DNA of 63,480 nt, filler included, from Phoronis australis (Eukaryota > Animalia > Phoronida): assembly GCA_002633005.1 (NCBI GenBank). It is 11 parts of 11 records of this genome, joined end to end, with 100 filler letters (N's around TTAATTAATTAA, not from the genome) between each part and the next. Parts side by side here need not be neighbours in the genome. Positions count along the whole stretch, not along the records: positions 1 to 24,430 come from NMRA01000793.1; 10 more parts are not named here. One strand, 5' to 3'. The position numbers and the translations under genes are program-made. Below, piece by piece: positions 1 through 45,585 of this stretch. The stretch's first letter is position 1. The number at the start of each line of letters is the position of its first letter. A model generated the notes under the pieces. The model ran no database searches and was not told where the DNA came from. It saw only the letters and a program-made list of their open reading frames with translations.

Positions 1-1727
1 TTATAAGGTAATCCTTTCATTAAGAACAACTGCAATCATATCAATAGATCATATCCATGAAAACAAGTCTCCGGTGGAAGAAATCTACCTTTGGTGATTA
101 CCCGAATAACACTTCCGCCATGAAATAGTGCAAAGTGATAGATCTAACACGGTATCCTGTGCCTTCTTGTTTGCCTCAAACTCTTTGTCGGTTTTAAAGA
201 TTCGAGCGTACCTGAAAATTGTAAATTTTAACAAATTTCTTTCTGTAGTGACATTTATGTTTTAATACGCCAGTTCTCACACCGCTTATTTTCGTGAAAT
301 GACCCCGGAGTTCTGATTGGGCAAAGCTTTGAAAAAGAGACAATGACGTTCAATGTTAAATTCTGGGTTGCATCACTTTTTTGGCGCAAAACTCCAGGAA
401 ATAGCCAAGAGATCACTTGGGTCACATTCCTGAACTTGAGTGCATGGCAATCGGACTGGATGAACATGTATGTTTTATCGAGAAAGAGTGACTGCATATT
501 TTTGGTTGATAAATGTGCAATTTCTATGAAAGGACATGCATTTTCGGTTGCTTTTGACACAGAAAATATGAAAAAATGACAAATTCATGCCGTCGTTTGC
601 ACCACCGTGAAAATTGTTAGTAAGGAGCTGAGAGGTGCGGAAACGAGGTATTGCATATGCAATTACAAGTGGGGTTTCAGACTTTCGCTTCAGATTACGT
701 TACTTGGTGAATTCCCATCAATTTTAGGATAATGCACAGCTGCGTTTTCATCGCATCGGGTGTGCATAAAATGATGGTATGGAAATCTGTGGTGTGACGT
801 ATTCTTATCGTACTTAACACGCAGTCCTATTACGACAATATATGCCGTTGACATCGATACATGTCGTCACCCGCGCGACAATACAATGTCATGTATGTGA
901 CGTGGGCGATAATATATGCCGTGAACACTAGCCCTGTATTGTTACCTCGTTCATGGACAACAACACTCGACATGAATTGTCCCTATCCATTTATGTTGAA
1001 AAGTAGTCTGTTTGTCACGGGTTTTCGGCATATATGCGCATCCAGAGTTACGGGGAAGAAACTGTAAAAATTTCAAAACGAAACTGTATAGCTTGTAGAA
1101 CGTGGCAAATGTGCGGGAGATACTAGGTGTTGATGATGATGGTAACGATGGCGATGACGTTGATGATAAGACTTACGTACCAGATCTTCAGTGCAGGGCT
1201 AGTTGATAACACACAGACCGTGGTAGAGTTCAGTAACGCTTGTCTCTAAGCTTCATGTAGGACCTCGTTAAAATGCAAGACTTCGCGAGATTACTTGAGA
1301 TATTGCTGCGTATTTTAAATAACACGGGATTGTGGGCAGCGAATTCTGTAGCAAATCAGGATAACCTAAGTGTGTTCCGTTTTGAAACCTAAAGCGCTTT
1401 CAGTTAGATATCACAATGGCAACTTTAAACCTTTGAAAATTCTCTTTTGGAGTGTACAATATGTGCAATTACAACGTGACACCCGACATATATTGCCACT
1501 TTGTGAGGTGGGACAGTGTGTACTGGGTGGTTCAATATATGCAGAAAGTTGAAACACATCGTCGCCTAGCTGGGCCGCAATATGTGTCAATGTCTACGAC
1601 GTGTATAATCCCATTCGGCATTAATATTGTCGCTGAGACGACAATATGTATCGAGTTCTATAGTAAATGTGAGGATCACGTGCACATTCGGGCAGAAAAC
1701 CTGTTGGTTATCAATTTGTTATTTCAG

Positions 1728-1889
1728 GACACACTGATTAGCGAGTTGCTGGAGTTGAATAACGGTAGAGTTGATGCTATACTGAACAACAAAGATGATC
1801 CGGAGTTCCTCAAACGGAACTTACTCAAAGTCCATGTGTATTTTGAAGATTTAAACTACGAAGAAATTAGTCAAAAACCGGAATACACG
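1728..1889 (+). CDS. DEG/ENaC (amiloride-sensitive channel family) penultimate coding exon
   Basis: Acceptor tttcag, donor gtagga, 162 nt, phase 0-0. Encodes DTLISELLELNNGRVDAILNNKDDPEFLKRNLLKVHVYFEDLNYEEISQKPEYT; NLLKVHVYFEDLNYEEI..K..Y is the conserved pre-TM2 segment (ASIC [23 protein letters not shown]). Upstream exons not found in the window. Confidence 0.92.
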
Positions 1890-2893
1890 GTAGGAATTTT
1901 TAATGAAAAGGGAAAACATTTTTTTACTTTTAACATATTCACTCCTAATAAATCAAAATGATGTGCTATCTAAGTCATAATAAAGACGCACGCACGCACG
2001 CACCACTAACTCACTTAATGGTCGCTTAGTTTTTGACGACGTACATGTAGGTGATGCCGGATGTCAAATGTGTAGTTGGTTGCGACAGAACCCATTAAAC
2101 CCAAATAGATGTTTTGGCAGTACGTTGAGCCACTGCGGTTTCACACCCGGGGTAGAATTGCTCGGGACCCGTTTGCAACCCATAAGAGGAATGACATTTT
2201 CTTTATTTTCGCGGAAGCGCTTCGGTGAATCTGAAATCACCGCCGTTCCGTTGTAATTACTGCGGTAAATATAAAATCACCGTGGCAATTTCGAAATCAC
2301 CGTGACGGCGGAGATTTTCAAAACCATCGAGAACACCGTTCCATTGGAGTAAAAATTTAGAGAGTATTATAGAATAATCCTTCAAGCTACATTTCATGTG
2401 TATGTTTTACTTTTGACTTTTAGTAAATCAAGTTTTCGGATTGCCTATACTGTATCGTTTGAGGATTTCATTGAATTTCAAGGCATAACCACAGCTCTCC
2501 ATGCCCATTGCTTCAAACATATATTTTAATATGAACTTAAAGTTCATTTTCTCAAATCAATCCTCTAGTCGAATGCACAAGAATTCATCTAAATTCCAGC
2601 AAATTTGAATTGTTTATAAAGGTATTCCTTTAAACCTTACATTCAGAGGAGATCACTGATCACTGTAGACGAATCTACATTTTTTTCGGTCGGATCTGAA
2701 ACTGGGTGCGCATAGTAACCCCAATCGTCATCAGGAACAGTTGGAGAATAATTCCATAGCCAATACTCTCTAAGCAGCTTTTCAAAAGATTACTGTTCTC
2801 GATCTTCTGGAGTTGTTTAACTTAATTGTAAACATCTTTGTCGTGAGCGGAACAGTTGAGGAAAATGTCAAATTTTGCACTCGTTTGACTTTG

Positions 2894-6414: not shown

Positions 6415-6422
6415 TATAAAAG
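6415..6422 (+). promoter_or_regulatory. TATA box of the secreted WAP-antistasin gene
   Basis: TATAAAAG 58 nt upstream of the ATG at 6473, which sits in a good context (CAACATG). Confidence 0.65.
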
Positions 6423-6472
6423 ACCAGCGATCATGTCATTTGGCTACGGCTTCAGGAGGGTAGTCCATCAAC

Positions 6473-6524
6473 ATGAAGGCGTTGGTTGTGTTGGGGTTAT
6501 GTCTCGTTGTCTCCGCCAGTAAAG
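6473..6524 (+). CDS. Secreted WAP/antistasin protein, exon 1 (signal peptide)
   Basis: MKALVVLGLCLVVSASK then AAAG|gtagag, phase 1; typical hydrophobic signal peptide. Confidence 0.82.
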
Positions 6525-7371
6525 GTAGAGTGAACTAGTGCTATTTTGTGTTATACGATGTTGAGTAGAGCATTGTTTGGAAAATTGTGGATAAAAACTT
6601 TTTACTGCGGTTGGTCTCTCGATCATATGGTGGCCCAAAGTTGACATTGGAGAATAAAATTACGAAAACATTCACTTCTTCGCAGAGAAAGGCTTTCTGA
6701 CGCGGAGAACATTTTTCTCAGAAAGTTTTTTTCCGCGGAGATAAGTTTCCTCTGCGGCGAAAAGGTTTTATCCGAGGAGATTTTTTTCGGTGGTGAAAAA
6801 TTTTTACGCGGCGGAATGATGTATCCAAAGAGATGAGATATTTTTTCAATGTCAGCTTGGGGCCAGCCTACGATCCTCAGATTACAATGGCATGTACGTT
6901 TTCCCAATTATTAAATAGTACGAGTATTTTTCATCTATCCAGGGACATGATTTCTGTTAGATTAAGCAAAAATATATAATTGTAAGTAGTATGTGCCAGA
7001 TTCATTTTCAAACTTGAGCTTCCCAAGGGAAGAAGATTGCGGTCAATATCAACTTTCATCAGGTGGCGCTGGGGAAAAGGATACCGGTCCATTTCAGGTG
7101 TTTTTTCTTTTTGAAAACAATGAGCTAATTATATCGCACTACCATATCAATTAAAAAAAAACACAGATCAGAACCAATTATGCTTTTTGACCTCAGACCG
7201 TTATTGTTTTGCAATGAACGATGACCACTATGACCTGGAGAGTCATTCCGCTTCACATTAAGCCCTGTTGAGTGCTTCCACTTAAACTGGATTTTGTTAT
7301 CTGCAAAAGCCCCAATCAGTATCTTTCCTGAGAGAGAAAAGCATTATTCAACAAAGAAATCGCTTTATATT

Positions 7372-7440
7372 TATATACATATACATATACATGTACATGT
7401 ACATGTACATGTACATGTACATATACATATACATATACAT

Positions 7441-7483
<43 letters not shown>

Positions 7484-7487
7484 TATA
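7372..7487. repeat. Compound microsatellite (ATACAT)n/(ACATGT)n/(AC)n/(AT)n
   Basis: Directly visible; accounts for the HIHIHVHV ORF at 7294-7488. Confidence 0.95.
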
Positions 7488-8217
7488 GTGGATTGTGTGT
7501 TTCAGTGTGGGGTCTCTCTACTCACACATAACGTTAGTCATGCCAGCCTAATTCACAAACTTCCTCTTCAAACATGGTCACGGCCGCACTTTCGAATGTT
7601 GGCGAGGTTTACACAACATTACTTTGTTTCAAAGATTTAACTGGTCTCATCGCACTTCATGTCTGTTGATCAAACATGCCTACAACGGAGTTCTTTCTCA
7701 AGTTAAAGAGACATTGAACGTGAATGCTCGTCAAAAATACCTTTGAAACAATTCCTGACGAAAGTACCATCTCGCAACGTCTAGTAAAGAGTAATTCTGT
7801 GAGGAAATTTTCATGCAAAAATCACAAAATTCGCGACTTTTGAAATACACCCACTTGTGATAAATCGCGCATGTGCTCAGTCAGTTGCTTATTGTCGCTT
7901 GAGGTCATAAGTCACATTTTCCCACGTCTATGTTTTGCCATACCAAATAAGGAGACGTGCTTTGCCTTGTGGGAGACAAATCGGCGAAGTGGTGAACAGT
8001 TAACAGATCGTTTTCTTGAAATCTGAAACTAAAAGAAAATGCTCTGATATCACCGCAGAAATTAGAAATATTTATGAACATACTCTAAAAATACCTGGTG
8101 AGCAGGTTAAATTCTGTTTCGGTGGCAGAGAACCACTTCCAATGTTGCAATTTAGTCTATCACGTTCCAGGCCTGTTTAGAGTCACTTAATGCCGGATTG
8201 CATTTTTACGTTTACAG

Positions 8218-8295
8218 AAGGTTGTCCACCTATAGAGAAGAAAACAGTGGGGATATGTATTCATGAATGTACAGCAGACGAAGAATGCGGTCAAG
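8218..8295 (+). CDS. Secreted WAP/antistasin protein, exon 2 (WAP N-half)
   Basis: Acceptor tttacag, donor gtaatt, phase 1-1; EGCPPIEKKTVGICIHECTADEECGQ. Confidence 0.9.
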
Positions 8296-8496
8296 GTAAT
8301 TAGTAAAGACGAGGCTCTCCGTACTTAGCTTCCAGGGTTGTATGTTATTTCATCCTATATAGTACTTTAGTGAAAACTAATTCCAAAGTATTGAAATTTT
8401 GCAAGTGAAAAGTTTTCCTTCAAAAGGTTTTGAAACAGAATAGTTGTCGATCGGTTTCACTGCCGAAAAATGCGTTTTGAGATTCTCATTTTGAAA

Positions 8497-8728
8497 TTAT
8501 TGTTGGGTGGGATAGACTTCTTTAATTGTTTATTGTTGGATGGGATAGACTTCTTTAATCTATTATTGTTGGATGGGATAGACTTCTTTAATTTATCATT
8601 GTTGGATTGGATAGACCTCTTTAATTTATTATTGTTGGATGGGATAGACTTCTTTAATTTATCATTGTTGGATGGGATAGACTTCTTCAATATATTATTG
8701 TAGGATGGAATAGCGTTTTCTAATTTAT
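8497..8728. repeat. 33-bp minisatellite, about 7 copies
   Basis: Unit TTATTATTGTTGGATGGGATAGACTTCTTTAAT; accounts for ORFs 8457-8780 and 8470-8703. Confidence 0.93.
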
Positions 8729-8789
8729 TAGTGTTGACCAGAGCTATAAAACGAAAAATATTGTGCTTTTGTGATTGCATTACAAAATG

Positions 8790-10580
8790 CCAATTCTCGC
8801 TGTTGTCTACGAGACATCTGCTGAAATCAGGTTAGCTCTGATTTCTGAAAAAGCGCCACAAACTAACAAAAAAGTGATATTCATCCTCGACACAATTCCT
8901 GGGGCATAATGTATACACTGCCTTCATGTATCACATTTAAGTGACGACAAGTTTCTACTGCCAGTCTGTGGTATGCACATCGACAACGTGTATAACTTTG
9001 CACCAGTGCTCTTGGAAGGTTATCAATTTCAAAATTGTTTTCATGCTCAAATACAACTGTAAATTTTTTATAATAGTTTAACTAAGAATTGGAATCAACA
9101 TCGAACTGCCATGTTTGCAAAGCACAGTCCTTAACACATTGTGGGAAAATATTTACAAATGACACTTGACACGCTACAAATGTCCATCATTTTCATCTAG
9201 CCAGCGTAAGCAGCCCTTGTGTTACGTTCCCGTGGCATATTCAAATTTTTGAACCAGTATTTAATACTGCTAACAAAGGATCTCGCAAACATAGGGTATC
9301 CGCCACATTTACCCAAAATTGCAGCGCTAGAGCAAGTACCGCCAAGTCCTAAGGTCAATTTACAAAATTTTAATTATTTTTTTTCTAAACACTCATATTC
9401 TTTAAAACCCCAAATCTTGCCACCATAACAAAATGTTGGGTACACCAGTTTATCAGACAAGTAAAAGGCAAGTGATGGGGGCATCTCGCGACATCTGCGC
9501 TGTGGTTTAAAAGCAGGTGATGCAACTTTATTTTCTTGGAAAGAGAGAGATTTTGTAGCTTTCGACCGTGACAATTTAGGTGTGATAAAAACATCAAGAC
9601 ATTTATAATGAGATACAGCATCAACTTGCTGGTTGTTAAAAAACATTTCTCGTAATGTCTTAAGAGACCTCCATTTCTAAATACAATTATTTTTGTTTTC
9701 TTTAAATTCACAGCCATACCCCATGAATCACAATGATCATTTTGAAAATTCAACATGCGTTGCAAGTTAGACGCTATTAGAGAGCACAAAACCATGTCAG
9801 CTGCATACAATAGTGAATTAATATTTGTAGCATGCTCACCTAAGCAGGTGCTATTGATGTCACTACTTGAATTGTGTTTTTCTAATACATGTACCAATAG
9901 TGTTATTAAATAAGTCTGTTAAACTATCACGCGATTTAGCACACGATCTCAGCTTGCTATATATTGATCGCAGAATTGATAACATATTACCATGAACATT
10001 AATTTGCATAAGTCTATGAAACAGTAAGCTATGTGGTACTCGATCAAACGCTTTTGAATAGCCAATAAATGCACAATATAACCTGCCACCTTGCTTGCTT
10101 ATGTGTGTCTGACATATCGCATACAAAGAAGATATATGATCCACAGTCGCATAACCCTTGCGACACCCTGCCCGGGCTTCAAAATGTCGACCATTACTTT
10201 CGGCCCAATACAATCGCTTATTCAGTATTCTGGTAAAGAGTTTCCCAATAGCCAACAGAAGCCAAATAACTCTATAATTATTCTCATCGTCCACGTTACC
10301 TTGTTTTAACAAGGAAATTAACATTGCATCACACCAAGTACGCTCAAAAGACTGCTATTTATCGAACCGGCTGCTGATCCGCTTGCAGAACTTTGGAATA
10401 CGGCTGCAGGTTGCAGGTCAGATTACCCAGTGATATTGACCTTAGGAAACCAGTTTTCTCGCCGATAGCAAGGTACTGATTAGGCACATTTTACCTGTTA
10501 GGTTTCAAATGTCTTTATTTCATAGCAGAACTTCATCGGTCATTTTTCAATCATATTTTTCGTAAAATTACATCTAAATT
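8790..10580 (-). mobile_element. Decayed non-LTR retrotransposon (LINE, RTE/RTEX-like) ORF2 remnant in intron 2
   Basis: Frameshifted RT motifs NNYRVIWLL..IGKLFTRILNKRL, LYCAFIGYSKAFDRVPHSLL, SLLYAADMVL (YADD) and VNLKKTKIIVF, plus C-terminal CTLCPRNCVEDEYHF..VC near 8860-8920. Clade is inferred. Confidence 0.88.
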
Positions 10581-11042
10581 TACTAAAGCGAGGTCGTAGG
10601 TACATACCGCTATCTGACACAGTACGGGGACTATTGCATTCAATTATGTGTACATGTACAGCACTTATACACTTGCAGCAAAAGAGAGACTAGTTTTGTT
10701 TTGATTCTCCGTTTGGCAGAAGAAATAACTCAACATCTGAAATAAGCAGATTAACAGGTTTAATTTCTCACGATTGCCCTCTCTGTCTGAGGAGGGCTCG
10801 TAAGTTGTTCAATACATGCAGTCTCAAAACTAATTTTTTTGTTTTAGTTGCTCATTTTGGAGCTTCGAAATCGCTCTCTGTCTCGCTTTAAGGTATTTAC
10901 CATTCAGTGTTCCGATATTTTCCCGTTTAAACTATTTCACATGCCCACTCTCTGTGGGTTTTTTATTTCTCCGTGCGGAATCTATTTTCTTAAAAACAAC
11001 AGTCTAATTAAAACTTTATTTTAGTTTTCTCGTTTTTTCAAG

Positions 11043-11193
11043 GAAAGAAATGCTGCTCAAATGGTTGCGGAAGCATGTGTGTCGCTAGTAATGTTTCCGA
11101 CACAGTTGAACCGACACTATGCGCTGTGAAATGCCTCGTGGATCCGTGTTTGAAAACGCCTAAATGTCCTGCGTATCCCAACGCAACATGCAA
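11043..11193 (+). CDS. Secreted WAP/antistasin protein, exon 3 (WAP C-half plus start of the 8-Cys module)
   Basis: Acceptor ttttttcaag, donor gtaagt, phase 1-2; GKKCCSNGCGSMCVASNVSDTVEPTLCAVKCLVDPCLKTPKCPAYPNATC. KCCSNGCG..C completes the four-disulfide core. Confidence 0.92.
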
Positions 11194-11559
11194 GTAAGTT
11201 GGAATCGTAATATTCATTTTCCGTTGTAAAGAAAATTTATTTGCCATTGAGAATGAGGCTACGTCCACTCTAACACCAAGCTGTATGAAATAATCCCCCT
11301 GGCTTGCTGCAGTTCCATTTCATTTTGTTTTTATGCAGGGAATAACCCTTTGGTTTTAACAATTAATAAGACCTAGCCGTAAGACATTTTATTTGACGTC
11401 TCAGAAACCACACGTTGACATCGGTAAAAACATGGAGTTTCTGTATGTTCGTCTTGCCTCTATTATTTTGTTAATTTTTATCGCTATTTCTAACAGCAAC
11501 TTACTTAGGCTCTGAAAACAACTTTATTGTTGCAAGAACTGGACATATAATCGATGTTA

Positions 11560-11668
11560 CATGGGCGGTGCAGGCCCCCCCCCCGTGGTGCATCGTCTAT
11601 AGACCATGGGCGGTGCAGCACTAAAGCGGGGGCTATAGCCCCCCGCCCCCTATGTTGCGCCGCCCATG
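11560..11668. mobile_element. Short GC-rich MITE with CATGGGCGG...CCGCCCATG termini
   Basis: Terminal inverted repeat, internal duplicate of the left end at 11605, and flanks TGTTA/TGTCA (imperfect 5-bp TSD). Confidence 0.6.
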
Positions 11669-12645
11669 TGTCACTGACGTCATATTAGGCACTGAGTATT
11701 TTACCCTCATAATGCCCAGCACGCCGAAGGTTTCTCCGCTTTAAAAAATAGATAAGAAAACTGTTAAATCACAGGGAACATTATGTGTTACAAAATCATT
11801 AGACTTCAAATAGAGTTGGTATATAATTTGATACGAGGAAAGTGCCGTGTTCACAAGCACAATATCCTCTCCGGCTGGTTAAAAAGCAGCCAAACTACCG
11901 ACAAGCTTGTGCATTGGCTACTGGGAAAATAGACTAGTACCTGGAAACGAGACTTGCTCCGATCTATTGTGGCTCTAGATTGGTGATAGAAATGAAGTGG
12001 AGAAACTTTGCAACAATTGAAGGTAGGGCCTCTCAACCTATTGCACATGCTGGCCTATCTTTTGCCTTTTTTCTGTTACTTCTGTTACTTGCTGATATTC
12101 GCCTGTACGCCTGTATTCGTATTATACTGCTGATAAGGCACTTCTTGTATAGAATATCAACAACATAACAACCAAAGGACATTTTATCTAAACTTCACTG
12201 CATTTTAAAAGTGAAAATAGCTACATTGTAAGCCTATTACGTAAGTCAACTCTCGTTACTTTAAAAATGAGTTAGTCAATACTGTCAGAAACTTGACTGG
12301 TTCGAAGCCGAATGCGCGGTAGAGGTAGGAACGAGGTTACCGGGAAATGAATGTATCTAAACGCGCAATTTCCTCTTCGGCTGTTTGAGTTCACCCAGAC
12401 TGTTCTACATCGAGTCAGTCCATAGACAGCCTGGAACATACTGAAATCACATGCGAAATTTTGGCGACACCTAGCGGTAACTGTTCACAAAAGAGGGAAT
12501 TTTCAGCAAAAGCTTTTTGCAACAATAACAACTGAGGTTGTGTTCGGACTCATTATTGTAAACGAAATTATCAAGAGCATCCTCTTTCGAGTTACCCCTG
12601 TTACCCTGGTCTCTTGGCGGCAGTTAGTCTTTAACATGTAAGCCA

Positions 12646-15290
12646 TAGGCCGTAGCTCCAGTCTTTTCATCCTCTGAGCATGTCAGGGGGTCAACTTGAT
12701 TTTTTCTGTATGGTTAGATATACCATCAAGCAATTGAGACCTGAAAAATTCCCATGTTTTAAGTTACACATTTTTTTGTAGAAAAACTGTTTTTTGTGAG
12801 TCCAAATGTTACATTATTGAACAAGAGGTAGCGCTAAATCCAACAAAGGACTAACACAAAATGGCATCTTAAGCCAATCACAAGCTCAGAAATTAAGTAA
12901 CTGCAGACCTAATCTAACATGGCGGCTCCCTTAGGAGCTGCTGTCAATGAATGCTGCATACACTTTCAAGCAGTAAGTTCATCGGATCTGTAAAGTTTCT
13001 TGAAACTGATATGGGCAAAAAGCATTAACTGTGCGAAAGAATGACTTTCGCTAGAAGATGAAGACAGTAATGAGCACAATGTGTGTTACCAGTTGGCATT
13101 TGCATCAAGTAACTTCACGGATTGATGTGGGCTCCAGGCAGTATCACAAAGTTATATAAGCTTACTGACGTTACAAAGATAGAAAGAGCAAAGAGGAAAG
13201 ATTGCGAAACTACAAAGTGTGCCGAGAACAGAACCCCCTGATTACGACCAAGATGATGGTGAGTGTTATTTTTTCTGGGAGTATGACAAATTGAAGCAAG
13301 ACACTAGGACAGTGACAGTTTAGTCAGTTCCTCAATGGGAAACAGGTCACTTCAAGCCCGAGTCAAGTTGTACCCAAGCCTAATTTCAAAAGTATTTCAA
13401 AACTATTTATTGTTGTTTTATTACTTCATTGTATTATATTACTGTTTTTCTTGTTGAGGGCCCTCTTGGAAAGCAGTGCTATCACTGAAGAGGCCACCCT
13501 CATTTTAAATATCACAATAATAAATACATAAATAAAATTTTAATTTGGCAAAGCAGTGATTAAAATCCATCAATCATGTCATATTTATGCAAAACGCAAC
13601 AATATTATCTGTTATTTAGTAAATGAAAATGAAAATTTATTAGTTATGTTTTTAGCACAGGTACGAGTTAACTTGGGTGCGAGTTGGCTAAGGTACGAAC
13701 TGACTGGAAAGCCCTCATATGCACCAAATAGTGTTCCAACAACGCAGCACAAAATTAATTTGTAAGCAACCATCAACAAACTATGTTGAATGAGTAGAAA
13801 CTCAATAAAAATGACTGTTCTCAAAATATTTGCGATATATTTCGTTATTCGTCGACCATTTATTTGAGGTAAAATACAATTTAGGATACTTGCATGATTG
13901 TAAAGACTTATTTGCATATCTGAAATTGTATGTTAATTTTCAAACAAAAAGTTGTTTTCAAGACCATTTTGCATACAAACCCATAGGTATCTTTTCACAG
14001 CTGTCTGGGCCTTGTACATGCGCGTTTTATTCTGACCACGGTTTTCATTTTTAATTTGCTTGATTGTAGGTGGGTTGGTTTTGGATGCTGCTATGGCAGG
14101 AAATGACATGGACCTTTTGATCAGATTACAGAGAAGAGATATGGTAGCACTTGAAGCCAAATACCATCGTTCTTGCTATAAAAGCTTCACAAGACCGCTG
14201 GCAAAACAGAAATCTGACGATAGTGAAAGCACAGATGTATTTCAAGAGTTTTGCGTTGAAGTTGTGGAGCAACAAATAATCTCGCAAGAGGAAATATTGC
14301 ATTTGACTCTGTTAAAGTCACTCCTGGAAGAAACTTGTCCAAAAGAGGTTGTAATGTATGTGTCCTAACTGGAAATCTGAAATCGAAATTACAGAGAATT
14401 TGCCCTATTCTACAATTCCTTAGTGCAAAACGGAATCAGAGTGAATTGCTTTTAAACAAACATTTGTTCTTGTGTAAATGCAATACTAAGATGCACTGAA
14501 ATGTGAAACTGCCAAAACTGTGAGAATATCAAAGTGAGTGATGAAATTGGGTCAGATGATGAGTAACGGTGTGATGGACTAGCATCCCAGCCAGAGGAAC
14601 TTGGAAAGACATCTTCTCAAGAGACAGAAACCAGTGAGCCTGGTGATTTGTGAAACATTTTTCTATTTTCATGTTTAAGTCTCTAATAATGGCTTTTTAT
14701 CTTGTTAATTTCTCGGCCTTTTGTACTTCATCCGATTGCATTTGTTGTTATTTTATATCTTTTGTCTCCATTTTTTGACAAATTGTATGCTTTGGACTTG
14801 TAGCAATGATTGTTTTTGTAAGACAGATTAGTAAATGTATGATAAAGCAAATGTGAGACATAGTCAGTTTTGATAATTATAGTTTTACCAATAGTAAAAA
14901 CAGCACAAATTACTATGAATGATAATGCCATATTTCGCCAACAGGTAGCACCTATAAATTCATATTTCTTGCACAATTTTACATTTTAATTGAAAAATAT
15001 AACAAGGTACATGTATGTGTTTATTATGACTTAATAGAGCCTGTAGGAATATTATCTTCAGTATCATCCTTTATGGAACTTATTTTCTTCTTTTCTAACT
15101 TTTTTAATTCCATGTAAAATTTTTTGACTTGGCACAATTTCAACATCAAATTTCACAGAAATGTGCAAGTTTAAACGCGAGAACTTTTTTGATTCATAAA
15201 GTACAATGATTTGTGACATCAAGAACACCTGAATTAAATTGCCCCATCCCCCAAAGTAGTCACAGAAGTGGTTTTCTAGGCCATGGCCTA
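12646..15290 (+). mobile_element. Internally deleted Academ-type DNA transposon in intron 3
   Basis: Termini TAGGCCGTAGC...GCCATGGCCTA with similar GGGGG..CAA.TT.ATT subterminal motifs. Coding relics DMVALEAKYHRSCY (14060-14368) and a C-terminal Cys cluster CSCVNAILRCTEM*NCQNCEN (about 14465-14530). No TSD recognisable. Confidence 0.7.
13341..13712. mobile_element. MITE with reiterated CAACTCGTACC-type termini nested in the Academ remnant, itself containing a LINE-like 3' tail (about 13445-13535)
   Basis: Left GTCAAGTTGTACCCAAG versus right GGTACGAGTTAACTTGGGTGCGAGTTGGCTAAGGTACGAACTGAC; internal GAGGGCCCTCTT...AAGAGGCCACCCTC hairpin followed by a (TAAA)n-like tail. Confidence 0.45.
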
Positions 15291-16290
15291 ATGCTTTACA
15301 CGGGAGACTTCTGGGGAAGTGGAGTCCCAGCTTTTCATCACACACGTTGATATTTTATCCCAGAAATTGATTAGGTGCTTGATACTTTGGGTTGTTTTTT
15401 GGAGGTTTGGAACCTCATATCCCATATTCCAACTGAGGCCGGGAACTGATTTGCTTGAAAATTGGGCTCGTCTAAATACGGGGCGCAGGTCTTAACACGA
15501 TGCCGAAAGCAACATGCGCGACTTTGTTGTCGCACCTTGTGCTGGTCCGAAGTTAGTATTACACTAGCCATATCACTCGCTGCGATATCGATGCGACCAA
15601 TTTTCATCTGTTGGATAATTTTTGTTGCTGGGCCCAAGCCGCACCGGGTGTGCGATTGACCGCTCACGTAACATACATGTAAAGCGGGACATGTGCTTAC
15701 GCGTACCCTCAAAATGATTATAAGTCATGCCACGTGTAAGTTTAGGCAAAATAATACAAAATGTCTGGGCTTTTGTGAGTTTACCTGTGTCATTTGAAAG
15801 TGCAATCATGTGAAATGCATGACTTTAAATAAGTAAATGGATACGAGATTGTGTTCAATGTCATTTGTGTTTTGCGTATTTTGAGGATCAATAAGTCGCA
15901 AATAATGTGTCCACCTCATGGAATGACGAACAGGAACGCCTATGCGTTTTGTGTGTGCTGGAAGTAAGAATGATCTAGTCGAATACATAAGCATTGAACT
16001 TGCTCAGTGCTTGCCTGTAGTCATATGCAGCGCATTTGCTTGGTTGGTACTTTTGGGTGAACCCTTTGTTTTGGTTCTGTAATACGCAGACTGACGTTCC
16101 TAATTATTCATAATAACCCCATGGTAGGAACGGTGATGTTCCAACGGGAAGAGTGTCCCAATAACTTGTTTTAGGCATATTCGAGTTTTGGAATTTGTGA
16201 TTTTGGTTTGGCCATTTTAGCGAGACGGAAAACTTTTTCCTGTCAGTAGTTTGTACTGTACGTGTTCCTGTATTTTTCATGTTGTTATAG

Positions 16291-16367
16291 AGCTAACTAC
16301 TGCGGCGGATGCAAAGCGGAGTTCTTTGTGGACCAGGTCAAAGTTGACAATTGCCATGTTACTCCAA
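16291..16367 (+). CDS. Secreted WAP/antistasin protein, exon 4 (NYCGGC module C-half)
   Basis: Acceptor gttgttatag, donor gtaagt, phase 2-1; KANYCGGCKAEFFVDQVKVDNCHVTP continues in frame from exon 3. Confidence 0.9.
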
Positions 16368-16657
16368 GTAAGTTCAGGAACGTAGACGCAAGGACCTTGA
16401 GAAAACGAAAAATCACGCGAGATATCGTAATACATTACAAGCAAAGTACGCGACCAAACTAGCTTTCAATCCTGAGATTCTTGCGTCTACGGAACTCAGC
16501 GATGAGACGTATTTCTGGTAAAGTAATCTTGGCAAACGACCGATCATTGTTGGTGATATCTGTCGACACTGCCTGGCAAAAGCATTGTGAAACGCACTGT
16601 AAAGTTGCTCTGTGTTAAATTTCAGTTTACAGCAACTGCGGCTGGCATCGCGACATA

Positions 16658-18030
16658 TAGGCCATAGTCCATTCGACTCTAGGAAGCCTAGAAAATCCCT
16701 TCCGTGGGCACTTTTTAGGGACAAGATAATTTTGTTGTTTTTAAGGTCATCACGTACTATACTTTAAGAATCTAAAAAGTTCCCAATGTTTGACTTGCAC
16801 GTTTTCGAGAAATTTGACCTCATAAATATGAATTTTTGCATAATTTGGCATAGAAAACCAATCTTCAAAAACCAACAACACTAGACAAAAACTGAATGAT
16901 AATTTGATTGGAATTTGTTCATTTGAATTTACTGAACAAGGAAAGTGATATATAATATGATATTAGGCGGAAAATTGCTCAAAAAGAGAAAAAGAAATAT
17001 TTTAGCAGTGTCTCCTGTTGGCCAGAAAACATTCTACTGTATTCTGATCTGCCAAAAAATAAATACTGTTAAACATTAGGATGGAACTTGATTAAGATTT
17101 GATATCACAACCTACATATGAACAATATACATTTCCAACACTTCTGCAACAAATTCACTGTCATCACTTTCATTAATTGTCACAATTAATTATCATTATC
17201 CACATAGCTGTTCACTGTCAACTGCCACAGGGAACAATACACCCAACAGTCCCCACAGTCACCAGCATGATTAAATGTTGTCAATATTTTCCATTAGGTT
17301 GAAAATTTAAAGTTCTTTAACAACATAACATACACTTATTATGTTTCTTCATGCACTCCATCATCATTTATATCATCATTATTTCACACTTACCATTAAC
17401 ATTCTTAATGGCATTTTCTGGGGCTAAAGGCAGAGTCATCCCGTGGAGCTTCAGACTAACGTGCTCCAAAAGCCACCCATTACCAACTGGAGATGGTGCA
17501 CTGACATGCTGTTGCAAGGCTAGTTAGTGAATGGCACTCTGGTAGTTTGCTCTTTTAGCATGTAACAGCAAACAATCATGATGAAGAGGCAGATCACAGA
17601 TTTCAACCTGAATATGTGGTAGTGTGCTTTGTTAACTGTTAATGACTCACCGTACAGCTTGCATACAAACGGTTTTATGTTTTCCAAGAGTTAACCAGGA
17701 AACACAAACTTTTGAGCCCAAATTTAATGGCAAAGACAAAGTTAAAAAAATCTCTGCAAGCCTACATCGTACCCAAAATAAAAAAAAGTTTTGACAACCT
17801 GAATACCATTTCATCTAAACACCTTGTTACAGTAATCCTATTTAACTGAAATAGATAACCAAAATGCTCTTCACTTAAGCACACATGTGGACATTTATTA
17901 AGATTCCCTGGGTACTTGAGAGCTACAAATTGTATGGACACAATACTTTTCTGGCATTTGATTGGCTGTTCGGATCATTCTGCATTGACACCTGGTGACT
18001 AACACATTAGTTGAGGTTATATTTTCCCAA
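16658..18030 (-). mobile_element. Second Academ-type remnant (3' part), inverted relative to the first, in intron 4
   Basis: Minus-strand relic FVCKLYG..VNKAHYHIF...DCLLLHAKRANYQSAIH*LALQQHVSAPSPVGNGW...MTLPLAP (about 17390-17690). Terminus TAGGCCAT...GCCTAGAAAATCCCTTCCGTGGGCACTTT resembles the reverse complement of the 15290 end. 5' boundary uncertain. Confidence 0.7.
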
Positions 18031-19703
18031 CTTTTAAATTAAAATTCTAACTACATGTGCAAGTGTATTCTTGGGAATTTTTTTGAAATTGAATTTTGAA
18101 CACATGTACATGTAGATGGGTTTAATGCAAAGCTCCCGTTGCCCCCAGAAAGTAGCCACGGAGGTGAAAGATAGGAGAGCTGGGACTTTGGCCTAACGTA
18201 AACGCTTAGATCCGAAGGTTAGTGACACGTGACTCGTATAATGAAAAACAGTTCCTCAGTCTTTGGGAATTGTTTTCACACGTTTGGTGTGCACTGCTAT
18301 TAGAGATGATCTGAAGAGGGTAGCAAAAATGTAGACACGAGTCGAAATTCGTCAAATCGAGTTCACTTTTAGCGAATCCTTTGTTGTCGAGTAAAATGAC
18401 ATGGTAACCATTGTCGATCTGTGCAACAGTAACTAAAAAGATTGACTTTGTTAGGTAGGCCTATAGTGAGTAACCACGCAGATGTAACTCGTGTCATTCC
18501 AAACATTATACGATAAGCAATAAAACAACAGGCAATTATAAATGCGATTTTTGACTTGTGATTAAAAGTCAACCCTATTTCGGGCCTTGAGTGTTTGCAA
18601 AGAGAAAAAATACATATTGTCTGACCCTTTTTATCGTATTTGAGATCGACATGTTCATTCAGTATAAATATACCCGTTTTAGCCGTAAGTTGTTAACTTT
18701 TGGAATGCTTTACTGCAATGAAAAATCCCATTGTATTCTAAGCTTCATTGTCCTGATATATCTACGTTTCAGCGTGTTCACCAGTGATGTGTAAACTTTT
18801 ATGTCGCCATGGTTTCCAGAAAGATGAAAACGGATGTGACGTGTGCAAATGTAGAGCGAAGCCAGGTATAACAGTGAACTGTTTATGATCTGTAATAGCG
18901 TCCTGTATTCTGTACCTGTAACTGTAAAATAGGCAGAATGAAGTTATCACTAAACACCAATCGCGAGGTCATGGCAAGGTGGACCTGGCTAACTATGTTT
19001 CCGTTATAAGCCAAGCGCAGTCTGAGAATTTTCACAGACTTCAAATCAATAAAAGTCTGAGGGCCTTGGTAATTTCACTTCTACCAATTGCAAAAAAATA
19101 GTCCCACCGGTTCTCTCAATTTTCGCTATGACTGGTTCGCGACATTTCCCCGAAACAAAAAGTGGGTAACTGGTGGCTAACCCGTAAATTTGTTAAGCCA
19201 CTTAAATTCATGTGCACTGTCACCTTTCGCAAGTTCAATTACATGACGTTCATTTTTTGACTTCATGTAGTTATCAGTTCTTACTCAGCAATGTTTCACA
19301 TGTTTACTGATCGTTTGCTTCAACGGTTTTCTTCTTATTTGCAGTCTTGTGTGACAATGATATTCTGTTAAAATGATTTCAAACTCGGTTTTTCCTAATT
19401 AACAGATATTGAGAACAACTTTCCCATAGAGTTATCTGAAACAAAATAATGCTCTGTAACCTTAGACAACCCTCAAAATTTGTAAACTCCTTAAAAGTCT
19501 GCTAAGCGAACAAACGTAACCAATACTTTAGGCGCGGTTACACTACTGTACGGTATACCACCCTCCCAGAACCGTGTCCAGTTTGTGACTCAGATTTTTA
19601 CTTGAATCCTACTCTTATCAGTCATTTGGGACGCCAGGCATTGATTGAACTCACCAAAAGAAGGTTTTATATTCTTTTAAGAAAAGTGTTGATGGTATTT
19701 TAG

Positions 19704-19808
19704 TGTGTCGGCGTAATGTGTCACTGTGCCGACGTAGACGTCACTGTCGCTTTGGATTCCTGAAAGACAAGAATGGATGTTATACTTGCAAGTGCAAACG
19801 CAGACCAG
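19704..19808 (+). CDS. Secreted WAP/antistasin protein, exon 5 (antistasin domain 1)
   Basis: Acceptor tattttag, donor gtaaat, phase 1-1; MCRRNVSLCRRRRHCRFGFLKDKNGCYTCKCKRRP (C..C..C.xGF..D.NGC..CxC). Confidence 0.9.
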
Positions 19809-20050
19809 GTAAATGTATCACATTTTCGATTACTCGTGTGAACGTGACGATGCCCGGGTTTAAAAGGGTCGGGAGGTAGATGTAGGCGCAATGAACATGC
19901 AAGAACGCTCGATCCATTTCAACCGGTGACGGACGACACCGCCATCTGAAAAGTTATTTCGAAATAACAGAAGAACGTTATTATGGTCGGTTAATTAAAA
20001 CATTTCAGAAGTTATAGTTCGACTTCGAAATTTAATTACGTTACTTTCAG

Positions 20051-20137
20051 CGTGCCAAACGACGTGTAGACGATTTTGCCGTTTTGTATTCGAGAAAACC
20101 GAAAAAGGATGTCTCACTTGCAAATGCAAAAGACCAG
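20051..20137 (+). CDS. Secreted WAP/antistasin protein, exon 6 (antistasin domain 2)
   Basis: Acceptor tactttcag, donor gttgta, phase 1-1; ACQTTCRRFCRFVFEKTEKGCLTCKCKRP. Confidence 0.87.
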
Positions 20138-21820
20138 GTTGTACTTTGATTTATAACGCAATATTTTTGTGTCTTTTGTTACAACCGGAGATAACGTGTT
20201 GCAATCACATGTGGTTCCTGTATTTCCAGATTTGAAAGATAAAATTATTTTCGAAATTTAAATTTGACGACTGGTCATTTTAATTTTGAACGGTAACTTT
20301 TCGCTTATACAGTGTTCGGCCAACGTTTTAATCGGAGGGTATTATAAACGCTGCATTATAATAAAAGGAGACAGAGCCTTGCCTGGTTTGCCGTCTGAAA
20401 AATTACATGTGAAATAGCGACAAATGGTAGAAACTGCTTTCTCATCGTGACAAGCCTATATGTTATTGATGATCAGACTCTGTTTGCCCATGGTGCTTGT
20501 CACAAGTGATTGGCCTGGATATCAGCAGTTTGGACGTTGATGTTACGTTAGTTACTAGTAACACGGCTAATAGAAAGCCTTTGCACGTGAACGATCGTTT
20601 TAAGCGTAGATCTGCCTTCTGACAAGATGGCTTACCTGCTTTCTTACGAATGCGGTATTAGACCACTCTCCGTTATGAAATGGATAGTTCCGATCAACGC
20701 AGTTAAGCCACTCCCACCATAGTTACCGTTGCAATGTCTCCAGCCAAAAGCAATTATGGCGGTAGTTCCCTGCAAAGCAACTGAAGTATTATCGGGTATG
20801 TAGTCTTAACAACCTCAGTGGTCTTGGGGCGAATTGCCCGCTACACTCAACGGAATATCTATGATTCTAAATCTTTGAACTCATTCACAGATTACTAAGC
20901 CACTGTCGTCAGCCGACCTTCAGCATGAATCAAAAGCTGTTTAGTTGTTGGTATGGTTTTGCACTGTACTCTGTGATAATTGACATGATCATTAGTTGCG
21001 CTGGTAAGCCAGAGCTTAACGGGTTTGTTCATGTTGGGAATAAACCGCTCAGTCTTAGGTTGTCGACGTAAAGCACACGTGTTGACACACACACATTTGA
21101 TTATTAGCCTAATTTACATCAAATACTAGCAAAGGAAAATATTACCGGGGTACGACCAGTCACTTTCACTTCAGGCTTGTTTAGTTTAACGTATACATGT
21201 ACAAATTAATCCAGACGATTGTGAAATCTACAACCACATACTTTTATATAGCGTGAACTCCTTTCCTTTTTCGCTTTCCGTTAACTGTTGATCTATAAGG
21301 AAAGTGCCACACAGACACTCCACTCAATGAAAACCGCTTTTCAGCCGAATGTTTCTGGGGCTGTGGATGTCGATCGTAGTGTTCATATATTCCCGCAACC
21401 TGGTTGCCTGGTACTTGAAGACTAGTAGCTTGATTGGTTGACATGTCGGAGCTATCCATCGGTCTCAACTTGGTTTCACATTCAGACTAGAGGCAGTCTC
21501 TCTTGGCAGACAACTAAAGACTCCAGAGTTCAGCATCTTACGGAGAGTCAACCTTTGCTCCGAGAATGGTCTCAAGCAATAACCAAGTCCAGAAACTACT
21601 TCTCATCTGAACAAAAACACAGTTGAAGCCACTTTATAGTACTAGACGGTCTAAATTTTTGACATAAGGCGGTTCTACAGTAGTCTTAGGTAATATAAAT
21701 TTACATGCTCGCGCTTGGAACGATTCATTTTGTTCACAAAACACCCATTTGCAAAAAGGCGATTTGTTTCACTTACATGTATCAAGAGCCACCTTCGCTC
21801 ATTGCGTTTTCTTATTCCAG

Positions 21821-21975
21821 TGTGCTTTCTTCGTGCTTGCAAGAGGCATTGTCCCCATGGCTATAGAAAAGATAGAAGAGGGTGTCAAAGCTGCAGATGT
21901 AAACCTAAAATCTACTTCAAAAACTTCAAAAGATTCTTTGATAGAAATGCTGTATTGAACATCCGAAATATGTAA
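21821..21975 (+). CDS. Secreted WAP/antistasin protein, exon 7 (antistasin domain 3, basic tail, stop)
   Basis: Acceptor cttattccag; VCFLRACKRHCPHGYRKDRRGCQSCRCKPKIYFKNFKRFFDRNAVLNIRNM*. The seven exons sum to 705 nt = 234 aa + stop with all phases compatible. Confidence 0.9.
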
Positions 21976-21992: not shown

Positions 21993-21998
21993 AATAAA
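21993..21998 (+). terminator. Polyadenylation signal of the WAP/antistasin gene
   Basis: AATAAA 17 nt after the stop codon, followed by a T-rich tract (tgtttgtttt). Confidence 0.6.
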
Positions 21999-24430: not shown

Positions 24431-24530
24431 NNNNNNNNNNNNNNNNNNNNNNNNNNNNNNNNNNNNNNNNNNNNTTAATTAATTAANNNNNNNNNNNNNN
24501 NNNNNNNNNNNNNNNNNNNNNNNNNNNNNN
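24431..24530. other. Artificial contig spacer (also at 27976, 33753, 37924, 40857, 44246, 46707, 53457, 57630, 60137)
   Basis: Ten identical 100-bp blocks of 44 N + TTAATTAATTAA (stops in all six frames) + 44 N. Confidence 0.99.
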
Positions 24531-25111
24531 ATGTTTCTTCTTCTTGATTGTTTTTGGCACACGTTTCTTCACCCTGACTGGGTCTGTTTTAGGTCGATTC
24601 AGCAGTCTCCTTTTGTTGTGCGTATGTCGTGTACTGGTGCTGCTATCGTTTGACGAGACTAAACTAACTGACGAATGTGAACGGTCTTCACTCTGGAGAG
24701 ATGACGATGATGGGGAAGGATAAATAAAGCCAGAGTCTGGGTCTTTGGTGTAGTTGGCATCATGAGATGGTATTGATGGCAGGGAGTTTACAGGATGCTC
24801 TGATGGCGGATTGTACAAAGCCATGCAACTGTCCGCACGTAGACTCAAGGGCGTGTCTTCCGTTCTGTGAGCAAACTTTGATATGTCTGTATTGGCCCTC
24901 TCCAGTTTACCCTGTGGTATGAGTTTGTTCAGGATCGCCATTTTTCGCAGCTGTTGCTTGTATTTGTTGATGTTTTTCAGGAACCGGGGACACCGGATGC
25001 ATTCCTGACGAGCGATTCGCTTGACTCGAGGCAGTTCATCTACGCACAGTTTACCAGCGTAGAGCAGACGAAAGTCTATGTTGTCAATGTTACGCAATAT
25101 ATTCACTGCAC
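24531..25111 (-). CDS. MATCAP: MATCAP/KIAA0895-family last visible exon, truncated by the spacer
   Basis: Acceptor actttcag; GAVNILRNIDNIDFRLLYAGKLCVDEL...PRFLKNINKYKQQL, then a Ser-rich and Lys/Arg-rich extension that stays open to the gap. Confidence 0.9.
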
Positions 25112-26054
25112 CTGAAAGTACAAGGTAACCTCAACATTGTCCTGAAAATGTACACAACAAATTGCTACCAGAAGTATACTCAGCTCTAAGTCAGCCACAG
25201 CCAGTTGGCAACAATCTTAAGTTGAATTTTAATTAAAATTTTCAGTGTCTTGACGTCATTTCGAAATTTTTACCACTATTCAATGTACAGGTCAGACAAC
25301 AACATATAAATTACATAAAATAAAAGACATAGCTGACACGCAATATTTTATGTAATTTGCATTATTACTGTGAGAACAATTTATTAAATGTTCATAGATG
25401 AACTGAACATTATACCTGAAGCTTGACAGATAATAATAAATTACTAATTAATGTATGGAAAATATTAGGAGGTGAAGAGCATTTTTACAAAATATCAAAA
25501 AAACATTTGCTAACATTTTCTTTAAAAAATACTTTTTAATCAGGAACAGAGTGGCGTGAATGACACAGACCCTTAAAGCCACAGACTATAAACTTGAACT
25601 TGAATACTTACCATAAGTGGTCTAAATCAAAAGCCAGTTTCTTCAACACAGCATAGATTGATTGCATTTACAAATTTTCAAATATTTAAAGCAAGACTTC
25701 TTTGATTTTGTTAAAGGGGGACATCAGCATTTTTTACCTAAAAAAGCAAACCTCCTGACACATTTCAGTGATTATGCTTGTCCCAAGGGCCTTCTAGGCA
25801 TGTATTAACAGTGAAGTCAGACAACCCATGACTTTCTTACATCCCCACTTTGCATTTTGTAGCACACACAGGTAAGGACCTGGGGAACAGTGTTTACGGT
25901 TAAGTAGGACCTTCAAAAATAGCCAAATTTGAAAATTCTAGATTTGATATCACTAAATCAAGGGAAAAAGGGGGTCCAGACACCCTTGGATCTGTCTATG
26001 ATTTGATTTAATGACAGCATACCTTGCCAGTGCCTGTAAACACCTGCAACTCAC

Positions 26055-37923: not shown

Positions 37924-38366
37924 NNNNNNNNNNNNNNNNNNNNNNNNNNNNNNNNNNNNNNNNNNNNTTAATTAATTAANNNNNNNNNNNNNNNNNNNNN
38001 NNNNNNNNNNNNNNNNNNNNNNNGTTTGCCGCTGGATTGCAGCTTGAGCCGAGCCATAAAAGGGTTCGAAATAAAGGAATTTGTGGTGGAATGTGAGTTC
38101 GATTGATAACAAGATGCTCATTCTGCATGTGTACATGTAGCTCTACAAAACTACGACACAGCTTCGCAAGGTCCAAAAATCCAGTCAGCGTTTCTTTGCT
38201 GCGATGTTTTTTGTCCAAATTCTGTGCTGTCACCTATCTCTGGGCTATGGGTGAGCCCATCCGTGGGCGTGACGCTCTCTCCACGTGGTGACTGTAGTGT
38301 GGCGTAATCAGGTCAAAATTTGTAAGCATAAGATATTGTAGACGACTGGATCATTTGCTGAATTCA

Positions 38367-43960: not shown

Positions 43961-44345
43961 GTTGGCGTTACAAGTTCTGTGGAAACAAGCCAGAGTTCAC
44001 CTCCTGAATGCCCAGACAACTAGCTTTTCATTTGTAAACGATTCAAAACTGCACGTAATCTCATTTTTACTAAATTACACACTGTCATCTCAACATCTTT
44101 TTAATAGTTGCCCCATCATTTAGCGATAGTGTTTCTAGTGTAAACTAATGAAGATCATGTCGTAAGATTCTTTGATATTTGATAGAAATCTCCTGAGCAT
44201 CGTAATTAAATCAGACATTTAAAACGATGAATTTCGATCGACGACNNNNNNNNNNNNNNNNNNNNNNNNNNNNNNNNNNNNNNNNNNNNTTAATTAATTA
44301 ANNNNNNNNNNNNNNNNNNNNNNNNNNNNNNNNNNNNNNNNNNNN

Positions 44346-45295
44346 GACTTACCCCGTGCTTGCCTGTGAAACGACCGTGCGGCTGTAGCGAAGGCTGCTG
44401 TCGGGTACGCCTGGAATGTGTGCTCCGTTGGTCCATTATTACCAGCTTCGAAAATCTTCATTTCGGTCTTTAATAGCGACCTCAGGGTGGCCAGCGGCAT
44501 GTTGATATCGCCTTTGTTTTGCCTGGCGATGTTTTGACGCATCGCTGGGCTTAACTTGTCCAATATCACGGGAACGAGTAGGTCCTTGTTTTCATGAGGC
44601 TCCAGGGTAATCAATGTCCGAATTAGTTTCTCAATTTTGTCGTAAAATGAGTGAAACTGTCCGGCTGTTGCGGGTGGCATGTTGTAAATTTGTCTTAACA
44701 GTTCGCTTTTGAGTTTTGTCGATGAGCCGAATCGTTCCTGCAGTAGGCTTATAGCCGTATGATAGTTTGCTGCCGTAATTTGCAGTCCATTGATGACATC
44801 CTTGGCAGCACCCTGCAGTGTAGATTGCAGGTACTGGAACTTTTGGACATCCGTCAGTTTGGAATTGGTGTGAATGGACGAAGAAAAAATATCCCAGAAT
44901 GTTGGGTAATCTAAATATTCACCCGAAAATTTTGCGAATTCCAGTTTCGGCAAGCGAATGATGTTTGCGGTTGGAGTCGGAGCAGTCACTGTGGGCGGTG
45001 TTGCAGTTGGTTCAGGTTCGGGAATGAGAGCTATGGCCAGCTCAATGTCCGTGATGTAGTTTTCATCAGCGTCAATTTCGGCTTCCATATCACTTGGCGG
45101 TAGGAGGGGGTGCAGTTCGCCGTTGATGTTGATGACAGTCTGCAGTTTTTCGGCGATGAGATGGGAAATCGCACGAGCTTTTGGATGGTCACCTTCATGC
45201 AGTGCTGTATCCAACTTGTGTTTAAGTTGTGTTATTTGTCCTTTCTGTGCCCCTCTCTTGACTCTGAGGAGTTTGATCTTCTCTGCCTTGTCCAT
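44346..45295 (-). CDS. BEL/Pao retrotransposon Gag (DUF1759-type), intact up to the spacer
   Basis: ATG at 45295; RLPKLEFAKFSGEYLDYPTFWDIFSSSIH..KLTDVQKFQYLQSTLQGAA...NYHTAISLLQERFG; no stops in over 310 codons. Confidence 0.92.
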
Positions 45296-45308
45296 GGTCA
45301 CGGCACCA
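45295..45308 (-). promoter_or_regulatory. Primer-binding site (tRNA-His type)
   Basis: TGGTGCCGTGACCA lies 3 nt after the LTR end ...CCCACA and is complementary to the tRNA-His 3' end (GUCACGGCACCA). Confidence 0.8.
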
Positions 45309-45311
45309 AAA

Positions 45312-45585
45312 TGTGGGATTCCAAAATGTGGGGTAATTAGCGGGTTAACTAGATGAGGTGGCTCGATGTGCTGAGCAGAGAGCTGATAGAGAGCGTCTTA
45401 ATGCTTCGATATATTTAATCAAACTGAGTTCTACACGACACATACATCTGTTAAGTTCCAAGAAATGATTCATGCCCAAATACATATACATTGTGGTTAA
45501 GAGAGGAAGAGAGGATGGGTTACAAAGAAAGACTGAACACACAGAGAGTGAAAGTTGCATAATGATTAATAGTTCCTAGTATACA
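45312..45585 (-). mobile_element. Putative 5' LTR of the BEL/Pao element (about 274 bp)
   Basis: TG(TATA)...(CCCA)CA ends and internal ATTAAA; the 5' boundary is inferred because the second LTR is not in the window. Confidence 0.6.

Follow-up and report, generated by a model that had tools for sequence, protein, structure and literature searches.

A spliced gene of Phoronis australis encodes a predicted secreted protein of WAP, eight-cysteine module, and antistasin units with one candidate inhibitory head

The window analyzed here is a 63,480-nucleotide stretch of DNA from the phoronid Phoronis australis (GenBank assembly GCA_002633005.1), made of 11 parts of 11 records joined end to end with filler; positions 1 to 24,430 come from NMRA01000793.1. 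A plus-strand gene in this first part runs from an ATG at 6473 to a stop at 21975. We read positions 5500–23000, checked splice sites by script, and scanned Pfam exon by exon, and resolved the gene into eight exons (table 1). All seven introns are GT-AG, with phases 1, 1, 2, 1, 1, 1, and 1, and the full chain encodes 265 amino acids with four antistasin units. Scanning the window in six frames revealed no additional exons for antistasin or for the eight-cysteine (NYCGGC) module described below. Protein searches with single exons gave no match, which is weak evidence because the queries are short. Four antistasin family matches that lie in phase and in order are not a product of chance, and RNA settles the gene model.

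RNA was taken from three raw-read runs (X1, X2, and X3) and one contig run (X4), all under the same species label. Joints were listed only from at least three reads, and about 19 in 100 of run X3 was read. Six junctions were found in X3, joining exons 1–2 (4 reads), 2–3 (5), 3–4 (9), 4–5 (9), 5–6 (5), and 6–8 (4), all of them GT-AG and on the strand expected of plus-strand RNA; X4 has no exon joint at the gene. The transcript seen in RNA comprises exons 1–6 and 8 and encodes 236 amino acids with 35 cysteines and three antistasin units. Past the last junction, RNA depth is present in 21906–22107 and absent in 22108–22300. Because exon 4 is joined to exon 5, this is a single gene, and the possibility that exons 1–4 and the antistasin exons belong to separate genes, which an earlier note on this DNA had named as what would undo its model, is ruled out. 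That note had placed a spliced plus-strand gene with consistent phases between these same ends, as the introns and RNA joints bear out, and the TATA and polyadenylation signals that it named are present as candidate sequences. Its seven exons and three antistasin units agree with the transcript in number and differ in membership, since the DNA holds eight exons and four units. The protein that it described, of 234 amino acids with 36 Lys/Arg against 5 Asp/Glu in its last 115, is reproduced exactly only if exon 5 (18773–18865) is omitted, and that exon is spliced in RNA. The joint from 16367 to 19704 that such a model needs is not among the three joints listed from exon 4 onward, and what it took as the second antistasin unit is exon 7.

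Exon 7 has an RNA depth of zero, and all four reads at the exon 6–8 joint skip it. Its donor is the weakest of the gene (5 of 9 consensus letters), its Pfam antistasin score of 20.9 bits falls below the 21.2-bit cutoff, and the first conserved glycine of the repeat is a valine, whereas both glycines are kept in the units of exons 5, 6, and 8. Exon 7 is likely a weak cassette exon. For this exon only, a decaying pseudo-exon, or one absent from the alleles of the animal sampled in X3, has a chance that falls a little short of even. Depth stays at zero at 96 in 100 likeness and, apart from the end shared with exon 6, at 90 in 100, the weak donor, lowest Pfam score, and lost glycine fit decay, and X3 reads also depart from the window sequence at another site (19717 T>A in three of five reads). 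Nevertheless, exon 7 retains an open frame, six cysteines, phase 1-1, and a good acceptor, and zero of four reads is compatible with inclusion of up to ∼53 in 100. The substitution at 19717, an allele or strain difference, changes Asn155 to Lys, whereby a glycosylation sequon is lost and one basic residue is gained.

The protein encoded by the transcript is ordered as a signal-like peptide, a WAP domain (amino acids 18–58), the eight-cysteine module (70–115), three antistasin units, and a basic tail of 21 residues. The signal peptide is predicted on hydropathy alone, which reaches 3.26 at the N-terminus and at most 1.48 elsewhere. Pfam matches to WAP and antistasin and a profile of the module confirm the three kinds of parts previously noted. 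Charge is unevenly distributed. Residues 18–119 are near neutral (net −2), and the WAP domain itself is slightly acidic (4 Lys/Arg vs. 6 Asp/Glu). The cationic C-terminal half claimed before holds in the corrected protein, in which residues 120–236 have 34 Lys/Arg versus 6 Asp/Glu, or a net charge of about +28 on 117 residues. Units 1–4, numbered here in the order of exons 5–8, have basic to acidic counts of 6/3, 13/1, 8/2, and 10/1. In 11 of 11 antistasin-pattern units from relatives that bear the module, only 1–3 Lys/Arg are present, versus 8–13 in units 2–4.

Pfam PF02822 matches all four antistasin units, three of them above the gathering score of 21.2 bits (43.2, 33.1, and 31.5), and unit 1 is the best match of the gene. 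Solved antistasins were also matched, by unit 1 (1skz, E 2e-7; bdellastasin, E 1.3e-5) and by the last unit (1skz, E 5e-6). These matches and the domain content support the earlier suggestion of a predicted secreted, cationic protein that resembles WAP/antistasin protease inhibitors. Each unit has six cysteines with the 10-2-1 spacing of the last four cysteines and the basic residue after Cys2 that are shared with the antistasin family. Relative to leech antistasin, hirustasin, and guamerin, the units lack the four-cysteine N-terminal subdomain of the ten-cysteine domain, and the matches to 1skz cover only its residues 28–57 and 86–111. The leech domain has ten cysteines, and Hydra antistasin consists of tandem six-cysteine repeats as found here (PMC7851590). 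Units 2–4 further differ from the family in being polycationic and having Arg at P1', and the whole array is fused to WAP and the eight-cysteine module.

Unit 1 aligns without gaps to antistasin residues 28–57, and Lys127 falls on Arg34, the residue of antistasin that is cleaved by factor Xa; two glycines are conserved per repeat (PMC7277884). The P1-P1'-P2' residues are K-L-L, R-R-R, R-R-F, and K-R-H in units 1–4, such that P1 is Lys or Arg in all four. Only unit 1 pairs a basic P1 with a hydrophobic P1' in a three-residue loop; the loop of unit 2 has five residues, and P1' is Arg in units 3 and 4. The transcript carries Lys, Arg, and Lys at P1, not the Arg, Arg, and Lys given before, and the proposal of a multi-headed inhibitor is weakened because the only unit with a favorable context is one that the note had missed. 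Unit 1 has the same C-(K/R)-L-L-C-R-x-G-F-x-K-D-E-N-G-C pattern as poecistasin (R-L-L), which inhibits trypsin, kallikrein, factor XIIa, and elastase and not factor Xa or thrombin; bdellastasin inhibits trypsin and plasmin, and not factor Xa (PMC6265900). With these as the closest characterized patterns, the suggested factor Xa-like target also loses ground. We rejected a factor Xa or anticoagulant inhibitor on domain type (six-cysteine) and P1 context. A basic P1' weakens inhibition, and the second domain of antistasin itself is reportedly inactive on factor Xa. Unit 1 is likely the working inhibitory head predicted for this protein.

The WAP domain has eight cysteines with a central CC pair (Cys 20, 31, 35, 41, 47, 48, 52, and 56), and its halves, split by an intron, match positions 5–24 and 27–40 of the PF00095 profile. 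This core and a cationic secreted protein are held in common with SLPI and elafin (WFDC4 and WFDC14) and crustins. In SLPI and elafin, however, 6 and 8 residues separate Cys1-2 and Cys2-3, a rule from human proteins, and shorter spacing goes along with antiprotease activity that is lower or inconsistent (PMC11408880). The spacing here is 10 and 3, unlike that of SLPI and elafin, which the earlier note had named as antiprotease and antimicrobial WAP proteins.

On this evidence the balance tilts slightly toward the predicted secreted protein of 236 residues being an inhibitor that is tethered to surfaces, acts on trypsin-like serine proteases, and belongs to a defensive or matrix secretion. Unit 1 would present a canonical, substrate-like loop to a protease whose S1 pocket takes up Lys127, and this target would be of the trypsin, plasmin, or kallikrein type rather than factor Xa. 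In the later units P1' is Arg, and each has 10–13 basic residues; these units would keep the fold and act mainly as a disulfide-locked polycation, which may anchor the protein to sulfated glycans, mucus, mineral matrix, or bacterial surfaces. WAP and the eight-cysteine module may serve as stable binding or spacer modules, and the phase 1-1 antistasin exons would let the number of units vary. Several points weigh against such an inhibitor. Support from RNA comes from one run of three, with 4–9 reads per joint, as neither X1 nor X2 has a junction read at the gene. The P1 rules derive from the ten-cysteine leech domain, not the six-cysteine unit found here. Functions of antistasin-like proteins outside leeches are described as "largely unknown" (PMC7851590), and a structural role is discussed for WAP-antistasin proteins of shell matrix and adhesives (PMC3374290, PMC9382459).

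Proteins that combine the two domains have been described from several secretions. They include Lotgi1|201804 and 239125 of the Lottia shell matrix (PMC3374290), Sfp3, Sfp8, and Sfp15 of the sea-star footprint (PMC9382459), P-vulgata_12 of limpet mucus (219 amino acids, 15.1% cysteine; PMC7333891), and StmAW-SPI of the sea cucumber Stichopus monotuberculatus, cited as a tested serine protease inhibitor (PMC7277884). All are cysteine-rich, secreted, and joined from WAP and antistasin parts like the Phoronis protein, in which domain matches and RNA joints place both in one predicted secreted chain. The shell, footprint, and mucus members suggest that the protein could instead be mainly a structural or adhesive matrix protein of shell, tube, footprint, or mucus, with disulfide-locked beads and a cationic half that cross-links acidic proteins or glycans. 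Non-inhibitory WAP spacing, atypical loops in three of four units, and the many module relatives that consist of nothing but tandemly repeated modules, up to 12 of them, are consistent with this. We nonetheless regard it as unlikely, because unit 1, unlike its diverging neighbors, retains a textbook Lys-Leu loop with charge in the ordinary range, the one run that shows the gene has little of its RNA, and the protein sequence has no low-complexity or dihydroxyphenylalanine (DOPA)-type repeats.

The charge of the C-terminal half raises another alternative, that the protein is mainly a cationic antimicrobial or glycan-binding protein, crustin- or SLPI-like by charge, with little or no antiprotease action. 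Antibacterial action of SLPI is ascribed to its +12 charge, and that of WFDC proteins tracks charge (PMC11408880). The C-terminal window of 11 residues has a hydrophobic moment of 0.89, a value reached in 133 of 5,000 shuffles of the tail, in a test picked after the tail was seen, and the tail is predicted to be amphipathic. But the charge sits on the antistasin units, not on WAP, and two classic heparin-binding patterns gave one match only. We hold this alternative to be distinctly improbable and continue to favor the tethered inhibitor.

The NYCGGC stretch is, as judged from its profile, a widespread domain family that is unnamed in the libraries searched (Pfam and NCBIfam). A pattern covering only part of the module (C-x-x-NYCGGC-x-A-x-F/Y) matched 39 prokaryotic loci, and all 39 also have the upstream C-x-x-x-P-C ... 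C and the downstream cysteine that lie outside the pattern. Twelve matches in viral contigs, none with this module context, were dismissed as chance. A profile was built from 37 of the 39 bacterial modules, with L031 and L040 dropped as near copies, and residues 71–116 of the Phoronis protein score 46.8 bits on it. None of the 37 modules matched a Pfam family at E 0.05 or an NCBIfam family at E 0.2, and the module and antistasin profiles are unrelated (profile comparison probability 0.2). The module profile finds 760 proteins among 2,261 candidates and 1,228 clusters (50% identity, E up to 0.001). Among animals, these are from amphioxus, tunicate, hemichordates, echinoderms, bivalves, nemertean, rotifers, tardigrade, and nematode, and outside animals from green algae, a diatom, amoebae, and bacteria. 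In hand-chosen sets of 13, 16, and 21 proteins, partners of the module are WAP, TIL, Kunitz, Kazal, pacifastin, thyroglobulin, and TIMP/NTR, as well as EGF, VWA, dockerin, and secretion tails. We found no published name for the module in a literature search that reached few texts of subscription journals.

Bacterial members have architectures of their own. Loci of Myxococcota type (L016, L019, L049, and others in L013–L051) encode secreted proteins with a TIMP/NTR-like N-terminal domain (Pfam E 3.7e-10 in L019) and the module, and in L017 and L032 the module occurs with pacifastin repeats; such loci are animal-like inhibitor cocktails in bacteria. In marine bacteria (L018, L026, L036, and L046), the module is accompanied by dockerin and Kunitz, or by a PETase-like hydrolase and a type IX secretion tail.

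Neighbors of the module were examined in the 240 best-scoring hits, a set in which multi-copy proteins are overrepresented. WAP immediately precedes the module in five and antistasin immediately follows it in three, and the order WAP-module-antistasin was found in none of the 240 by pattern, with which Pfam agrees on the 21 scanned. Saccoglossus XP_006817093 is closest among these hits across WAP and module (48% identity over 84 amino acids). It shares the WAP-module pair with Pecten XP_033728451, Mizuhopecten XP_021351240, and a kielin/chordin-like protein of Styela, all without the antistasin pairing, whereas Antedon XP_071940936 and Dermamoeba EP01097 P001600 share the module-antistasin pair without the WAP pairing. 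Database names of these relatives are automatic, and the module is unnamed in them. The module is also unmentioned in what is cited here of the WAP-antistasin proteins from sea cucumber, limpets, and sea star, and YCGGC was not found in the limpet data supplements (PMC7333891). As those proteins are set apart by their descriptions, the three-part order may already be published. The earlier idea of an undescribed domain combination fails for WAP with antistasin and stands, within the 240 hits, for the three parts in this order. We regard the protein as probably a known kind of WAP/antistasin secretion whose order of parts we did not find reported.

Searches by fold gave one recurrent lead. NvCI, a Nerita carboxypeptidase inhibitor, is the top fold match in three of three VIA-align searches with models of the module, with a weak fold score and no sequence match. 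Module profiles against PDB sequences reached a best E of 0.3 in one search and found nothing up to E 10 in another, and Foldseek with the module models had no match at E up to 0.001. A second weak lead, absent from the VIA-align lists, comprises the Trop2 ectodomain, the top Foldseek row for a bacterial module model (E 0.96, root-mean-square deviation 1.9 over 37 columns), and an EpCAM-like cluster listed by Atlas at a TM score of 0.38. NvCI and NpCI (PDB 4a94 and 5mrv) have ∼50 residues and a two-stranded sheet, as is predicted for the module, and a buried aromatic lies four residues past the fifth cysteine (Trp42 in NvCI and Phe105 in the Phoronis module; 371 of 407 modules have F, W, or Y at this site). 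Cysteine gaps are 5, 7, 3, 10, and 12 in NvCI versus 5, 7, 4, 2, and 13 here, and the module here has two extra N-terminal cysteines and a hairpin loop of two residues instead of ten. Inhibition of the NvCI type requires a free short C-terminal tail past the last cysteine (PMC6780499). No such tail exists here, since Cys115, the last cysteine of the module, lies well inside the 236-residue chain. Among 217 relatives, 31 stop no more than five residues past the module's last cysteine.

These likenesses bear on two further proposals. One is a truly multi-headed, cross-class inhibitor, with each antistasin unit directed against a trypsin-like or furin-like enzyme and the module against another class, either a carboxypeptidase as NvCI does or a small-P1 protease via its C-x-V/A-D-P-C loop. 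The basic P1 of all four units, the RRRR of unit 2, the recurrence of NvCI, and the inhibitor domains beside the module in other proteins are in its favor; the P1' residues of units 2–4 and the missing tail are not, and we consider it highly improbable. The other, which is unlikely, is that the module is an undescribed mobile extracellular family of animals, algae, amoebae, and bacteria (Myxococcota, Marinisomatota, and cyanobacteria) that gave rise to NvCI, an orphan picomolar inhibitor from snails, and is itself protease-binding. The gene would then be a three-fold inhibitor with its number of antistasin heads tuned by exon skipping.

Intron 2 and the remainder of the window hold features apart from the gene (table 1). 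The three frames between 35017 and 55465 comprise Gypsy-like gag (SCAN) and integrase remnants, a BEL/Pao-type DUF1759 frame, and a THAP frame, some of which adjoin assembly gaps of N.

Table 1. Features of the gene and of the remainder of the window.
Feature	Position	Strand	Description
Candidate TATA box	6415..6420	+	TATAAA, 58 bases upstream of ATG; sole TATAAA in 6200–6480
Exon 1	6473..6524	+	ATG, predicted signal peptide (amino acids 1–17), phase 1
Exon 2	8218..8295	+	WAP first half, Cys 20, 31, 35, 41; Pfam WAP E 0.0013 on half domain
Exon 3	11043..11193	+	WAP second half, linker, eight-cysteine module first half (Cys 70, 74, 79, 85, 93); phase 2 donor
Exon 4	16291..16367	+	Module second half, NYCGGC motif, Cys 98, 101, 115
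Exon 5	18773..18865	+	Antistasin unit 1, P1 Lys127, P1' Leu; Pfam PF02822 E 5.5e-11
Exon 6	19704..19808	+	Antistasin unit 2, five-residue loop with RRRR; Pfam E 8e-8
Exon 7	20051..20137	+	Antistasin unit 3, open, phase 1-1, six Cys; Pfam E 5e-4
Exon 8	21821..21975	+	Last antistasin unit (P1 Lys, P1' Arg), 21-residue basic tail, predicted amphipathic, stop; Pfam E 2.6e-7
Candidate polyadenylation signal	21993..21998	+	AATAAA, 18 bases past stop
DEG/ENaC (amiloride-sensitive channel) gene exon	1437..1958	+	Upstream of the gene; Pfam ASC E 0.0013
Tandem repeat	8496..8736		Intron 2; 33-base unit, 7.3 copies
Broken reverse-transcriptase remnant, long interspersed nuclear element (LINE) type	9388..10354	−	Intron 2; RVT_1 E 7e-9 and 2e-4
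Open frame	24529..25130	−	MATCAP (microtubule-associated tyrosine carboxypeptidase) weakly matched, E 0.009; oriented toward the gene's 3' end in the window, beyond joined part 1–24,430
Transposon-type or THAP frame	35017..37979	+	
Transposon-type or THAP frame	44345..45397	−	
Transposon-type or THAP frame	55133..55465	−	
Cysteine-rich candidate exon	61338..61530	−	From exon scan

For Phoronis, the gene adds one more shuffled WAP/antistasin secretion, in which the corrected model singles out unit 1 as the inhibitory candidate, and we propose a division of labor between one inhibitory head and a polycationic anchor. For the family, the eight-cysteine module marks a gap in the domain libraries searched, with more than 1,000 protein clusters across kingdoms, often beside protease-inhibitor domains. 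If the fold of NvCI derives from the module, its scaffold, which is known from two snail species, would gain a large natural family, and short-tailed members of that family would become candidate carboxypeptidase inhibitors.

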